In this document: positions 20,364-40,076 of the stretch, piece after piece
Layout of the letters: each line of letters begins with the position of its first letter
Position numbering within the stretch: the stretch's first letter is position 1
IMG/VR virus record: IMGVR_UViG_3300021368_000003
Span: 1 to 64,000 of that record
Source of the DNA: a virus
Direction: 5' to 3' (one strand)
DNA length: 64,000 nt
Made by a program: the position numbers and the translations under genes
The notes under the pieces: generated by a model
The model's database searches: none
Told to the model about the DNA's origin: nothing
The model's input: the letters and a program-made list of their open reading frames with translations, nothing else

Positions 20364-20543
20364 TTATTTATCCTTAAAGAGTTCCTCTACCTGCCTGCGT
20401 GCAGAGTTCATTTTGTGCTGTTCTCTTTCTGAATGTCTGTATTGATGTTTGCCATGCACGATAAAATATCCCTGAACTATCAATGACAGTCCAAGGATAC
20501 CTATAATTACTGTACCAATCAGTTCAATGTTATGTTCAACCAT
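20364..20543 (-). CDS. Small membrane protein, 59 aa (not in ORF track)
   Basis: Manual translation MVEHNIELIGTVIIGILGLSLIVQGYFIVHGKHQYRHSEREQHKMNSARRQVEELFKDK*. Confidence 0.65.
   Translation of the reverse strand: MVEHNIELIGTVIIGILGLSLIVQGYFIVHGKHQYRHSEREQHKMNSARRQVEELFKDK
20365..20372 (-). promoter_or_regulatory. Late promoter GATAAATA (gp3)
   Basis: Matches NATAAATA 14 nt upstream of gp3. Confidence 0.75.
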
Positions 20544-23961: not shown

Positions 23962-23969
23962 TATTTATG
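23962..23969 (-). promoter_or_regulatory. Late promoter CATAAATA (gp22)
   Basis: NATAAATA between gp21 and gp22. Confidence 0.8.
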
Positions 23970-23970
23970 A

Positions 23971-24618
23971 TTACAGATTTTTCAAGAACTCAGAAAACGC
24001 GGAAATCTTCCTTTCTTCTAATTGCGCTGCCGCAGCATTGTCAATTCTTTTCTTGATTTGCTCAATTTGCTGCTCGTGGATTGCGCCACCAGCAAGCACC
24101 CATTCCTTCCCTTCCATGATTCCATTGACAAATGCATCAGGAGCAGAAGGATCTGCTACGATGTCAGCAGCAGTAGCGAGCATAAAGTCTTCGCCTACTA
24201 CCTTGACACCATTTTCTTCCTTGATAGAACCCAGTCCGCGTGAAGAAACTCCCAGTTTGACACCTTCGTCAAGCAGTTGCTTGGCGATTTTACCCATAGG
24301 TGTTTCAAGAAGTCTTGCTTTACCAACAAAGTTATTACCTTCCTGTCTCAGGGAAGTGATGAGGTGAGAAGCACGGTCAAGGTTGATGGTAGGACCATCG
24401 GGGTGACCCAGTTCTCCCAGAGCACGACCAGTCTTAACGAAGTTCTCGTTATACTTACCTACTTCTCTTGCGAGAGTAGAGATAGGATAACGTCTTCCGT
24501 TACGGTTAGTGAGTTCGCCTTGCAGAAATACACCCTCAATGAAGGTGTTTCTCTTACCGTTCTTACCTTCGGTAATTACGATCTTGGCGTCATCAATTTG
24601 TTCCGTTATCAGTTTCAT
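23971..24618 (-). CDS. gp21: Prohead protease gp21
   Basis: MKLITE, NRNGRRY, ALGELGHP, GVSSRGLGS, DIVADPSAP. Confidence 0.97.
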   Translation of the reverse strand: MKLITEQIDDAKIVITEGKNGKRNTFIEGVFLQGELTNRNGRRYPISTLAREVGKYNENFVKTGRALGELGHPDGPTINLDRASHLITSLRQEGNNFVGKARLLETPMGKIAKQLLDEGVKLGVSSRGLGSIKEENGVKVVGEDFMLATAADIVADPSAPDAFVNGIMEGKEWVLAGGAIHEQQIEQIKKRIDNAAAAQLEERKISAFSEFLKNL

Positions 24619-36948: not shown

Positions 36949-37242
36949 TTAACCTAATCGGTCCTGAATCTCTGACATTGCATCCTTCTTTCCTTTGATC
37001 ATTCCATCGATATAACCACTTCTATATTCCCATGTTTGACCACCAACCTGACCCTTCTTTGGGTTGATACATTGATCATTTCCTAGGTTGTTGCAAACCA
37101 AACCTGCAAGGTCTAGTTCTGAATCTTTGTTAGTGTTGCCTGTACCTCGCCAGACATGTTGTCCATTGATCCACGTTGCTCCACACTTCTCACACTCTAC
37201 GCGAGAGAGTGACAGATCAGACGCTTCTTTTTCGTTACTCAT
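36949..37242 (-). CDS. Cys-containing hypothetical protein
   Basis: CEKC..TWING.H.W.G...DLAGLVCN....CINP.KG..GG.TW. Confidence 0.75.
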   Translation of the reverse strand: MSNEKEASDLSLSRVECEKCGATWINGQHVWRGTGNTNKDSELDLAGLVCNNLGNDQCINPKKGQVGGQTWEYRSGYIDGMIKGKKDAMSEIQDRLG

Positions 37243-37459
37243 TGTTTCTAAATCCCCAGTGATGTTTCCATGGTGGTGTGAGTGGGAGACCCAGTTCCTT
37301 TTCCATTCTGAGTCTCATAGGATAGACCCTAGCACAAATGATGAAGTGTCGCAACTTTAAGTCCAGAAAATAAAACAGTCGCATTGTGGATTCTATACCA
37401 GCATATGCGACCATTAAACAGACTATTGCAACGACAAAATAAAAACCTAGCAGTTCCAT
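37235..37459 (-). CDS. Small membrane protein
   Basis: N-terminal TM. Confidence 0.65.
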   Translation of the reverse strand: MELLGFYFVVAIVCLMVAYAGIESTMRLFYFLDLKLRHFIICARVYPMRLRMEKELGLPLTPPWKHHWGFRNNE

Positions 37460-37851
37460 GCGCGTAAAGATTTCGAGAGACGATCATCCCCAGTATTGTT
37501 GGATGGTTTCTGTCTCTTCCTCATACCTTTCATACGAGCACAGAAAGAACGACGACGAGGATTACCAACCTTTTTACTAGGTGCTTTCAGATCAGACCCT
37601 GGGTTCTCTTTTTCGTAGGACTTACGTCCTTTCTCATTGAGACCACCCTCTTTGTTCTGACCTTCTTTCTTAGTCCAAGCAGCACCTTCCGTACGCATTG
37701 TCATATCAGTAGGCTTCTTCTTCGATACTGCTTTCATTTGCAGTTGAAGTTTCTGCCTATTGATCATCAGTTGCTTACGCTGAATCTGTTGTTGGCGATT
37801 CTCCATAGATTTATCGCCTGCTTCGGAAATGTACTCCTTGAAAGTAATCAT
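37447..37851 (-). CDS. Basic putative head-internal protein with capsid-targeting-like N-terminus
   Basis: Starts MITFKEYISE|A; C-terminal GGLNEKGR...RR.SFCARM.G...LRAWNC module. Confidence 0.7.
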   Translation of the reverse strand: MITFKEYISEAGDKSMENRQQQIQRKQLMINRQKLQLQMKAVSKKKPTDMTMRTEGAAWTKKEGQNKEGGLNEKGRKSYEKENPGSDLKAPSKKVGNPRRRSFCARMKGMRKRQKPSNNTGDDRLSKSLRAWNC

Positions 37852-37976
37852 CTTGGTTTCTTAGGACAGTTTTCTTCGTGCTTTTCGATCCATGTCTTTG
37901 GACGCCAGTGACCCTGAGGTGAAGTCACCCCACAGTATTGGCACTTCCAAATGTTGTTAGCTTGTTTTTCAGCCAT
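37848..37976 (-). CDS. 42-aa C2HC zinc-finger protein (not in ORF track)
   Basis: Manual translation MAEKQANNIWKCQYCGVTSPQGHWRPKTWIEKHEENCPKKPR*; overlaps both neighbours by 4-8 nt. Confidence 0.7.
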   Translation of the reverse strand: MAEKQANNIWKCQYCGVTSPQGHWRPKTWIEKHEENCPKKPR

Positions 37977-39312
37977 AATGGTAAGATCCTTTATTAGTTT
38001 TCTTCGGTAGTTTACCACCTCTTACCTTGGTTCCAGATGTTTCACCGTAACCTGCTGGGTGCTTCCCTGCCTTAGTTTTACCGATGGAGTCAGACTTTGC
38101 CTTACTACCCTTTTCAGTATAGTGCAGTTTGGCGGATTTGTCTTTGTCCTTGGTAATCACAGACTCTTGTCCATGCTTGCGACCCAGACGACGCATCACT
38201 TTGCCGAAACGGCGCTTAGACATCTTATCAGGTTTTGAGGTCTGATAGGAAACTTCACGTCCAGTTTCACCACTGTCATACTTGTACTCGCCCACACCTT
38301 TCTTGTGACCGATACCGTGCTTCTTCAAATCTTTTTCAAGACCCTTACGACCTTCACGATTTTTCTTCTCGTCAGATCCACGGTCAGCACTGATGTGTCC
38401 AGTAACCTGAGTCTTAGACTTCTGCATCATGCGACCAGTACGGTTGCCTTCGTCGAGGAACTGCTTGAAGGACTTACCCTCAACTTCCTCTTTCTTCAAA
38501 CCAACCTTACGCATCACCTTACCAACGATGCCTTCTTTCTTCTTCGCCTTAGCAGCATCGATACGCTTCTGCAAATCAGGAGAATACTTGACAGAAGACT
38601 TCTTCTGACGCTTGGAGTAATCCATATAGGATTCACCCTTACGCAGTTTCTTAGGATCTTCCTTCTTAGGGGTTGAAGATGAGGATCCACGATCTTCACG
38701 AGCACGTTGGTTAGCACCAGGACCACCGAGTTTCTTATCCTTATCGGGATCGGGATGCCAAAAGTCTCCACGTTCCAGTATAACAGACTCTTGCTTCAAC
38801 CGTGCTGCACGCTTTGCCTTTGCCTTAGCAAGGATTCTTTCGCGTGCTGCTTTACGCTCATCGGCGGGGATGGCAGTAACTGCACCAAGTTTTTGATCAA
38901 CATCACCAGGGGCATAACCTTCTTTCTTGGTATCGATGATGGCACCTTTACCATGCTTCTTGCGGATCTCTGCCTTGACATGATCAAGTGCGCCCATACC
39001 GTCATACTTTTTCTTCTGGGGCATAGGTTTGGGTTGTGAACCACCAGATCTAGCAACGGACTTACTACGAGGACGCCAAGTGCCACGTTCCAACTGACGA
39101 TCCTTCATGCGATCGTAGTCTTCCTCCTTGATGAACTCTTCTTTTTTCATTGGTAACCCCTTATGTTTTGTTGATGCGAATTTCTTCACGTCGGAACGCT
39201 TGGCGGAGGCAGCAACTTTGGCAACCTCAGGCGAGGGATTCTCCATCTCTCCCTTCTGAGCCGCTCTAACCATCCCGAAGAATCTTTGTTGTTTTTTGGA
39301 GACGGCGGGCAT
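37969..39312 (-). CDS. Basic modular protein: putative head-internal polyprotein with C-terminal SAM-lyase-like domain
   Basis: Lys/Arg-rich modules separated by Glu junctions; KSFKQFLDE|G, then ISADR, G.Y, E.S, QESVI motifs. Confidence 0.65.
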   Translation of the reverse strand: MPAVSKKQQRFFGMVRAAQKGEMENPSPEVAKVAASAKRSDVKKFASTKHKGLPMKKEEFIKEEDYDRMKDRQLERGTWRPRSKSVARSGGSQPKPMPQKKKYDGMGALDHVKAEIRKKHGKGAIIDTKKEGYAPGDVDQKLGAVTAIPADERKAARERILAKAKAKRAARLKQESVILERGDFWHPDPDKDKKLGGPGANQRAREDRGSSSSTPKKEDPKKLRKGESYMDYSKRQKKSSVKYSPDLQKRIDAAKAKKKEGIVGKVMRKVGLKKEEVEGKSFKQFLDEGNRTGRMMQKSKTQVTGHISADRGSDEKKNREGRKGLEKDLKKHGIGHKKGVGEYKYDSGETGREVSYQTSKPDKMSKRRFGKVMRRLGRKHGQESVITKDKDKSAKLHYTEKGSKAKSDSIGKTKAGKHPAGYGETSGTKVRGGKLPKKTNKGSYHYG

Positions 39313-39594
39313 TTACTGTCTCGCGACTTTTGTGCATTTAAGACCTGTTCCATCGATAGTCTCCAAAGGATCCTTTTCTATGTATACAGTTTCACCAGAT
39401 CTGATCGATGCATTTCTGGCACCAAGTGCTACGTATTTGTCAGATCCACCACGCTCAGTAACCACAGGTGCATCATCAAGAACGAGCACGATGGTGGCAT
39501 TGGTATCGTTGACAACACGTACAGCAGTTGCCTTACTCAGATTGGTTGCGGCACTAAGGGTAACCTCAGTTGCCATTACTCGTACTCTATCCAT
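39313..39594 (-). CDS. Small beta-rich protein, probably virion-associated
   Basis: First gene after late promoter 39622; abuts the next gene. Confidence 0.7.
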   Translation of the reverse strand: MDRVRVMATEVTLSAATNLSKATAVRVVNDTNATIVLVLDDAPVVTERGGSDKYVALGARNASIRSGETVYIEKDPLETIDGTGLKCTKVARQ

Positions 39595-39620: not shown

Positions 39621-40076
39621 CTATTTATCTTGTTGTTGTTTTAGGAACTTAGCAAGATCTGCTGTACTCCCAACAAACATTGTATTGTTAGTTGTATTAA
39701 CTTCCTTTCCTTTCTTAGGTGCTTCAATATCAGCAACCTTCTTTTGAAGATCAACTAATTTGTCAGCAACATCTCCCACATGCTTGATCAACTGACCAGC
39801 AACCTCAAAGGCACGAGGTTGATCAGACTCCTGTGCAAGTTCCAGGATTCCATCAACTGCTTCTTGTCCTTTCTCAATCAATGAATACAAATTCCCACGA
39901 GTATATTCATAATCCTTCTTCAACTGTTCTTTGGTTGATGTGGATATTTCTTCGATTTTCTTTTCAGGTGGGAGTGGTTTGCTAGCAGGAGCAATCGATG
40001 TTTCTATATCAAGTGCATCCTCTATGCCATCAAACTTACTCGTCTTGTCCTGTTGTGGGGTTCCGTGAGAGTCCAT
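39621..40076 (-). CDS. gp16: Terminase small subunit gp16 (start uncertain: ATG 40076 or ACG 40043)
   Basis: DYEYTR.NL..LIEKG, PRAFEV, FVGST.DL. Confidence 0.93.
   Translation of the reverse strand: MDSHGTPQQDKTSKFDGIEDALDIETSIAPASKPLPPEKKIEEISTSTKEQLKKDYEYTRGNLYSLIEKGQEAVDGILELAQESDQPRAFEVAGQLIKHVGDVADKLVDLQKKVADIEAPKKGKEVNTTNNTMFVGSTADLAKFLKQQQDK
39622..39629 (-). promoter_or_regulatory. Late promoter GATAAATA
   Basis: NATAAATA overlapping the gp16 stop. Confidence 0.75.

Follow-up and report, generated by a model that had tools for sequence, protein, structure and literature searches.

We analyzed a 64,000-nucleotide window (positions 1 to 64,000 of IMG/VR virus record IMGVR_UViG_3300021368_000003) whose source is a T4-like cyanomyovirus (Kyanoviridae), and found that it contains a gene for a 447-aa basic modular protein with a predicted S-adenosylmethionine (SAM) lyase domain at the C-terminus. 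This domain stands right behind a leader and a cut site of the type found in T4 internal proteins, which makes it probable that the virion carries the enzyme and injects it along with the DNA. We are moderately confident in the whole chain of events that this suggests, namely that the gene encodes a late head-internal polyprotein, that a SAM lyase is delivered in the virion, and that it counters SAM-dependent defences. The protein and its parts are as follows, with a slash marking each predicted cut here and below:

37969 to 39312, minus strand: gene of the 447-aa basic modular protein (P0001), given as an open reading frame (ORF) with its translation.
39124 to 39312, minus strand: module 1, aa 1-63, a DUF3008-like N-terminal module ending I-K-E63.
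38773 to 39123, minus strand: module 2, aa 64-180, ending I-L-E180, with a phrog_11470 match over aa 119-275.
38476 to 38772, minus strand: module 3, aa 181-279, RGDFWHPDP...GGPGANQRAREDR, a conserved block in many relatives.
38449 to 38475, minus strand: capsid-targeting-like leader KSFKQFLDE/G, aa 280-288, with a cut predicted after E288.
37972 to 38448, minus strand: SAM-lyase domain, aa 289-447, identified by PF23780, profiles and predicted fold.

The initial annotation had proposed a SAM-lyase-like domain at aa 289-447, and a residue check found G289, N318, G341, Y343, E353, S355, Q382 and E383 at the positions it gave. Family membership by sequence, fold, and substrate-binding residues all bear this proposal out. 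The Pfam family S-AdoMet_lyase (PF23780, curated cut-off 28 bits) matches aa 307-415 with a score of 31.1 bits, and the domain taken alone scores 33.4 bits. The resemblance is well beyond what chance would produce. A word-indexed search returned 290 close homologues, nearly all with a precomputed PF23780 match. These include 15 named cultured cyanophages in which the gene is labelled 'hypothetical protein' or 'unknown', or carries no annotation. An exhaustive profile search of 1.84 billion representatives returned 230 relatives. Two alignments were used, a narrow profile of 26 close orthologues (A1) and a set of 56 diverse members with a mean column identity of 23% (A2), all 56 of which match PF23780 (best E 3.1e-22). 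The whole 447-aa protein had no match when compared as a single sequence with PDB sequences using phmmer, and the A1 profile gave chance matches only. A2 alone reached T3 SAMase (7OCK/8BB1, E 7.6e-6) and Svi3-3 (6ZM9, E 1.8e-3), and hhalign against T3 gp0.3 gave a probability of 84.8% (E 6.5e-6).

In these alignments ISADR pairs with VSAFR of T3, G-E-Y with G-C-Y and G-V-Y, E353 with E68 of T3 and E69 of Svi3-3, and Q-E-S-V with Q-D-C-V and Q-E-S-V. The T3 motifs given in the initial annotation are indeed present in gp0.3 as VSAFR, G55-C-Y57, E68 and Q94-D-C-V. Residues G341, Y343, E353, S355, Q382 and E383 are the counterparts of Gly56, Tyr58, Glu69, Ser71, Gln104 and Glu105 of Svi3-3. Three columns of A2 are invariant, G341, E353 and Q382, and this triad aligns to G55, E68 and Q94 of T3. 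Among proven SAMases, only Gly56, Glu69 and Gln104 are strictly conserved (Guo et al. 2021, PMC7877911). All three contact SAM, the E69Q substitution nearly abolishes activity, and Tyr58 and Glu105 assist (PMC7877911). Therefore, the invariant residues of this family are the known SAM-binding triad.

The comparison with the structures of T3 SAMase and Svi3-3 proposed in the initial annotation also yielded a match. An AlphaFold2 (AF2) model of the domain based on A2 had a predicted local distance difference test score (pLDDT) of 82.8 and carries a ferredoxin-like beta-alpha-beta-beta-alpha-beta core resembling solved SAM lyases. It replaced a first AF2 model based on A1, which had a pLDDT of 61 and marginal Foldseek scores. 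With Foldseek against the PDB, ranks 1-7 were all SAM lyases (8BB1_E, template modelling (TM) scores 0.60/0.67). In a VIA structural scan the T3 SAMase chain 7OCK_L was the sole match with Z of at least 8 (Z 12.7, root-mean-square deviation 3.3 A over 136 residues), followed by Svi3-3 6ZM9 at Z 7.6, and the next unrelated structure had Z 6.2. From the profiles and the model, the domain almost certainly belongs to the SAM-lyase family, and the conserved residues make it likely to be an enzymatically active SAM lyase.

The capsid-targeting-like motif KSFKQFLDE is encoded at 38449-38475 with G289 directly after it, as had been noted. The T4 MKTYQEFIAE-type sequence given in the initial annotation is also confirmed, since in the T4 record NC_000866 both ipII and ipIII begin MKTYQEFIAE/A; ipI begins MKTFKEF.... 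In IPIII, a stretch of ten residues at the N-terminus is enough to direct the protein to the head, and gp21 removes it (PMC9026906). Stand-alone cyanophage orthologues of the SAM-lyase domain begin MKTFKQFIAE/G, MKSFKQFIAE/G or MKTYKEFMAE/G, and in longer proteins the leader motif is always directly before the domain, whatever lies upstream. The aromatic motif is present in 170 of 201 scorable relatives (47 N-terminal, 123 internal). In relatives with a recognisable domain start, Glu occupies P1 in 205 of 210 and is joined by L, I, V, M or F at P3 in 204 of 210. At the level of sequence, this [LIVMF]-x-Glu border is the [L/I]-x-Glu rule of T4 gp21. Remote relatives in IMG/VR mostly begin MKTF-x-EF...[IL]-x-E/[SG][SG]L-x-R, and of five long viral records that hold them, three encode an S77 prohead protease and the remaining two are incomplete. 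The alignments with T3 SAMase and Svi3-3 begin no earlier than the ISADR region; therefore, the leader lies outside the enzyme core that they share. In a marine T4-like subgroup (IMG/VR contigs L010, L013 and L015) only the cut site is kept, in the start MKLDE/GG, and the SAM-lyase domain of this MKLDE/GGL subgroup is N-terminal in proteins of ~680-730 residues, the reverse of the layout in the window.

A strict leader pattern, applied to all six frames of the 95-kb contig, matched twice, at aa 280 of the 447-aa protein and at the N-terminus of a 134-aa protein encoded downstream, which is the only ORF in the contig with a leader-fitting N-terminus. There is no in-frame start codon beside the leader at aa 280-288, and therefore the domain is made as part of a polyprotein. 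Separate translation of the SAM-lyase domain was considered and ruled out, there being no in-frame internal start codon before the leader. Our literature search found no paper on capsid-targeting sequences in cyanophages.

Virion proteomes of other cyanophages connect this leader with presence in the virion. The T4-like cyanophage S-CREM2 has a 'SAM hydrolase', ORF6, in its virion proteome, detected with 19 unique peptides, and its authors suggested in 2023 that ORF6 enters the host and protects DNA from restriction (PMC10665884). We found that this protein, gp6, is a member of PF23780 (E 2.3e-19) and begins MKDFDSFLEE. Every start codon in the six frames of the 174,876-bp S-CREM2 genome was scanned with a relaxed leader pattern, start-[KR]-x-[FYL]-x-x-[FY]-[ILMV]-x-E, fitted to the leaders of T4 and of the cyanophage SAM lyases. 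Exactly four ORFs fit it: gp6 (SAM hydrolase), gp13, gp14 (kinase) and gp154 (cytidylyltransferase). Each of the four appears in the published virion list, which holds 52 of the 219 coding sequences (hypergeometric P = 0.0029), for a pattern that was not set fully blind, the N-termini of S-CREM2 gp6, gp13 and gp14 having already been seen. The cytidylyltransferase, a cyanophage core protein (T4-GC190), is also in the published virion proteomes of S-SM1 and S-SZBM1 as well as that of S-CREM2. It begins MRFRQFIIE in S-SZBM1, MKSFSQFLTE in P-SSM2, MKKFSAFLTE in S-SSM5 and MKNFSSFLTE in S-CREM2, and may likewise enter the head by way of the leader tag. The genes of these four phages that encode a T4-type leader on the cytidylyltransferase lie as follows:

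L093, 332 to 1420: cytidylyltransferase gene.
L094, 200 to 1474: cytidylyltransferase gene.
L095, 155 to 1315: cytidylyltransferase gene.
L091, 9608 to 10468: cytidylyltransferase gene.

The agreement of the pattern with the S-CREM2 virion list, together with the cytidylyltransferase leaders, indicates that the leader marks non-structural virion proteins in T4-like cyanophages. The capsid-targeting-like motif of the initial annotation is thus N-terminal in stand-alone orthologues, has a near-universal [LI]-x-Glu border, and belongs to a leader that marks virion proteins of S-CREM2. Two further S-CREM2 virion proteins have looser leaders that fail the strict pattern, gp12 (annotated as Cas9-like; L004, 7704-10313, minus strand), which reads ...LRFASFMAE at about aa 18-27, and gp15 (L005, 2844-3332, minus strand), which begins MNFSEFNE. 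The start codon of gp12 may be mis-called.

The organization of the 447-aa protein as a whole would suit a precursor. The protein has an isoelectric point (pI) of 10.2 and contains 26.6% K+R, and all of its modules are basic with a pI near 10. Its PHROG matches are to several different modular families, and the modules are recombined in many architectures. Module 1 has strong matches to phrog_30268/10538/28725 (E 1e-22 to 1e-24) and a weak Pfam match to DUF3008 (E 0.0056, below cut-off); module 3 matched no Pfam family. Each of the three [LI]-x-Glu sites in the protein, IKE63, ILE180 and LDE288, is on a module border. These borders are conserved in fused relatives, with the middle residue of [LI]-x-Glu varying. 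The first reads [LIVM]-x-E/E-[GED]-YD, the second [VT]-I-x-E/RGDxWHPDP with the variants ILE, IHE, INE, ITE, IAE and IVE, and the third [aromatic]-x-x-[aromatic]-[LIFM]-x-E/GN. The closely related protein of S-SZBM1, S-SZBM1_194 (SSZBM1_194), is 69% identical and has an extra insert of ~250 aa exactly at the first module border, where it reads EQYISE/EDYD. The modular layout and the borders fit a precursor that would be cut by gp21 into four pieces, and we read the 447-aa protein as a putative head-internal polyprotein.

The predicted cutter of this polyprotein is encoded in the same window:

23971 to 24618, minus strand: gp21-type prohead protease (Pfam Peptidase_S77, E 2.3e-36).

The genes for gp20, gp22 and gp23 adjoin the protease gene, and gp23 has L-N-E/AAP near the expected propeptide cut.

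The family, the fold, the residues that bind SAM, the motif with its conservation, the gene for the protease, the position in the late module, and the link between leader and virion in another cyanophage were all observed here. From these we infer enzymatic activity for the 447-aa protein and the following course of events. The 447-aa gene would be transcribed together with the late neck and terminase genes, and the precursor would be built into the prohead core via its T4-type capsid-targeting motif or motifs. The gp21 protease would then cut after the [LI]-x-Glu borders E63, E180 and E288, freeing the SAM lyase from G289 onward. This basic enzyme would remain with the packaged DNA and be injected alongside it. 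In the new host, ahead of the expression of any phage gene, it would cleave SAM to methylthioadenosine and homoserine lactone and thereby starve defences that depend on SAM, for example type I/III restriction and BREX-like systems.

At the DNA level, the closest cultured relatives of the source phage are P-TIM40, S-WAM1 and S-SSM7. The 447-aa gene is located between gp16 and gp17 and is closely joined to the genes upstream of it. The features around it are:

42753 down to 39621, minus strand: gp13, gp14, gp15 and gp16, the upstream block.
39622 to 39628, minus strand: ATAAATA, a T4-late-promoter-like element ~30 nt upstream of the 93-aa gene.
39313 to 39594, minus strand: a 93-aa gene between gp16 and the 447-aa gene.
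37848 to 38018, minus strand: a 56-aa ORF with a CxxC...H...C pattern and weak zinc-ribbon-like Pfam matches only.
37447 to 37851, minus strand: a 134-aa gene (P0002) encoding the leader MITFKEYISE/AG and a DUF6321 domain.

P-TIM40 and S-SZBM1 have the equivalent layout of gp16, a small gene and a long basic gene. In the window, the stop codon of the 93-aa gene abuts the start of the 447-aa gene. The 93-aa protein matched no Pfam family and is 78% identical to SSZBM1_195, which has the third-highest exponentially modified protein abundance index (emPAI) in the S-SZBM1 virion proteome (PMC9146016). Judged by this identity, the 93-aa gene product is an orthologue of an abundant S-SZBM1 virion protein. 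The 56-aa ORF shares 50 nt with the end of the polyprotein gene and 4 nt (ATGA) with the start of the gene that follows, and S-SZBM1 has a 45-aa ORF in its position.

The 134-aa protein has a DUF6321 Pfam match (E 2.4e-21) and is likely a second candidate head cargo. It is basic and consists of its leader, then a QLMINRQKLQLQ stretch, and then DUF6321 at the end. In other cyanophages, the QLMxNxRKLQLQ stretch stands before the SAM-lyase domain instead. A SAM-lyase domain and DUF6321 are fused in one homologue (P0018). Downstream of the 134-aa gene, the minus strand carries the metabolic genes petE, PTOX and zwf, followed by gp17-gp23. PADLOC gave no matches for the 447-aa protein, the 134-aa protein, the 93-aa ORF or a 97-aa ORF (36949-37242).

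All eight copies of ATAAATA in the window are on the minus (coding) strand, and their total count is not above chance. Several copies precede the starts of late genes (the 93-aa gene, gp22) by a short distance, and sites include 23962-23968 and 20365-20371. As a late-promoter element ATAAATA is suggestive only. No exact T4 late promoter, TATAAATA, was found near the 447-aa gene, and a literature search did not find transcript timing for any orthologue of the 447-aa protein.

Several points weigh against packaging of the SAM lyase. The leader is internal (aa 280-288), the true N-terminus of the protein (MPAVSKKQQRFF...) is not leader-like, and targeting in T4 is demonstrated only for N-terminal leaders (PMC9026906). 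Instead of a protease site, the [LI]-x-Glu border could simply reflect the structure of the helix with which the domain begins. Late timing rests on gene position and on a 7-mer whose count is not above chance. Lastly, SSZBM1_194, the nearest orthologue for which there is a virion proteome, is missing from the 30 proteins listed for S-SZBM1. That proteome is shallow, with 24 of 32 predicted structural proteins found, and a hand digest of the Lys/Arg-rich SAM-lyase domain gives only about five tryptic peptides of at least 7 residues. The virion proteomes of S-SM1, Syn9 and S-PM2 (PMC3037559) are uninformative, since a tblastn search of all records of these phages did not detect the domain.

One alternative is an active SAM lyase that stays out of the virion, with the leader stretch serving as a linker or N-terminal helix of the subfamily. 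Such an enzyme might act late within the producing cell, for example by keeping the host from methylating progeny DNA or by diverting methionine and polyamine metabolism. The internal position of the motif and the absence of the orthologue from the S-SZBM1 list are what this explanation would predict, and the motif forms a short helix in the AF2 model (residues 3-8 of the modelled piece). The Glu ahead of the domain, which almost all remote relatives retain, would likewise be expected of a structural element. However, the leader helix is of low confidence (mean pLDDT 54 for residues 1-10), T3 SAMase and Svi3-3 have no counterpart of the leader, and some family members start at the border itself, as in MKLDE/GG. 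Moreover, the leader heads unrelated proteins too (the DUF6321 protein, the kinase and the cytidylyltransferase), and it predicted virion residence in four of four cases in S-CREM2, the SAM lyase included. We therefore regard an unpackaged enzyme as unlikely.

It is also possible that the domain is packaged and that bulk SAM is not its main target, the protein instead inhibiting host SAM synthetase or cleaving a signal made from SAM, for instance the SAM-AMP of type III CRISPR systems. T3 SAMase binds and inhibits the SAM synthetase MetK. The best structural matches of the model are T3 SAMase chains in complex with SAM synthetase (7OCK, 8BB1), the match spans almost the full T3 chain, and the SAM-AMP lyases 9GAD and 9GAB appear lower in both structure searches. 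The latter matches are weak, however (Foldseek E 0.05, VIA Z 5.3), and the residues that bind the methionine moiety of SAM (E353, Q382, Y343 and E383) are conserved, which makes a target of this kind quite improbable.

T4 internal proteins are basic and DNA-associated. The initial annotation had correctly described the domain as Lys-rich (K+R 27%, pI 10.3) and had offered an inactive DNA-binding derivative as an alternative; a catalytically dead, histone-like internal protein that keeps the SAM-lyase fold and coats or protects packaged DNA would share this extreme basicity, but it is very improbable because the SAM-contacting Gly/Glu/Gln triad is invariant at 23% mean column identity, with the Tyr and the second Glu also kept, and a role in DNA binding would not account for their being kept.

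Delivery of a SAM lyase in the virion, the reading we favour, combines features of several known systems. T3 gp0.3 (7OCK, 8BB1) is in the same PF23780 family, has a common fold over nearly the whole chain, and aligns at SA-x-R, G-x-Y, the Glu (E68 = E353) and Q-[DE]-x-V. As the initial annotation had pointed out, gp0.3 is expressed early; it is the first early gene, read from host promoters at the left end of the genome. It is also a free-standing protein of 152 aa with no leader, whereas the cyanophage domain is the C-terminus of a predicted late polyprotein, stands behind a T4-type leader, and is far more basic, with an identity to gp0.3 of only ~12-19%. The T3 RefSeq record (L088, 901-1359) names gene 0.3 'SAM-dependent methyltransferase', a mis-annotation of a SAM lyase. 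Svi3-3 (6ZM9, 6ZMG, 6ZNB), a trimer with active sites at the subunit interfaces, shares the ferredoxin-like core and the six counterpart residues given above, with a weaker overall match (Z 7.6; profile E 1.8e-3).

S-CREM2 gp6 is the nearest precedent, being a PF23780 protein of a T4-like cyanophage with the same type of leader (MKDFDSFLEE ... LEE/SSLSRL) and found in virions. It differs in that its domain is N-terminal in a 414-aa protein encoded among early-region genes, rather than C-terminal in a protein encoded between gp16 and gp17. The S-CREM2 paper does not mention a leader, gp21 processing or a wider family (PMC10665884). The internal proteins IPI, IPII, IPIII and Alt of T4 share with the cyanophage protein a leader of ~10 residues (M-K-T-[YF]-x-E-F-x-x-E), an [LI]-x-E cleavage site, which in the cyanophage protein is a predicted one, a gp21 protease and a basic cargo. 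IPI* and Alt are injected and act on the host at time zero (PMC9026906). The cargo sequences of T4 are unrelated, however, and each is encoded by its own gene with an N-terminal leader, whereas the cyanophage protein joins several modules in one precursor with an internal leader.

Precursors of several modules have a parallel in the giant phages phiKZ and SPN3US, which have multi-module head or inner-body proteins that are cut after Glu by a gp21-like protease; PMC9026906 cites the SPN3US studies. These polyproteins belong to other protein families and have other cleavage motifs, and we know of no SAM lyase reported among them.

The domain was already covered by Pfam, and a virion-borne SAM hydrolase with the same role was proposed in 2023 (PMC10665884). 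The new elements are the leader tag, the borders of gp21 type, the layout as a polyprotein and the pattern that runs through the whole family. In T3-like phages, SAM lyases are known to be expressed early and to serve in counter-defence. If a pre-made SAM lyase is delivered with the DNA, it would act before transcription, which would matter against defences that attack incoming DNA within seconds. The hosts of T4-like cyanophages, Prochlorococcus and Synechococcus, are major primary producers in the ocean, and one study reports intracellular resistance to T4-like cyanophages in these hosts (PMC6708340).

More broadly, we give about even weight to the proposal that a general, evolvable head-cargo system operates in T4-like cyanophages and in further T4-like phages of the sea, in which the T4-type leader and the [LI]-x-Glu gp21 site form a portable tag. 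Its cargoes would include SAM lyase, a protein kinase, cytidylyltransferase, DUF6321, DUF3008 and others, often as polyproteins cut by the prohead protease, and the arrangement in polyproteins suggests a way in which cargo is exchanged among phages. The leader pattern picked out 'regulatory' virion proteins of S-CREM2 without error, and the leader with its cut site offers a cheap way to predict injected effectors from sequence. If such a system exists, the set of effectors injected by each phage would be readable from its sequence, and the injected SAM lyase would be a time-zero counter-defence.

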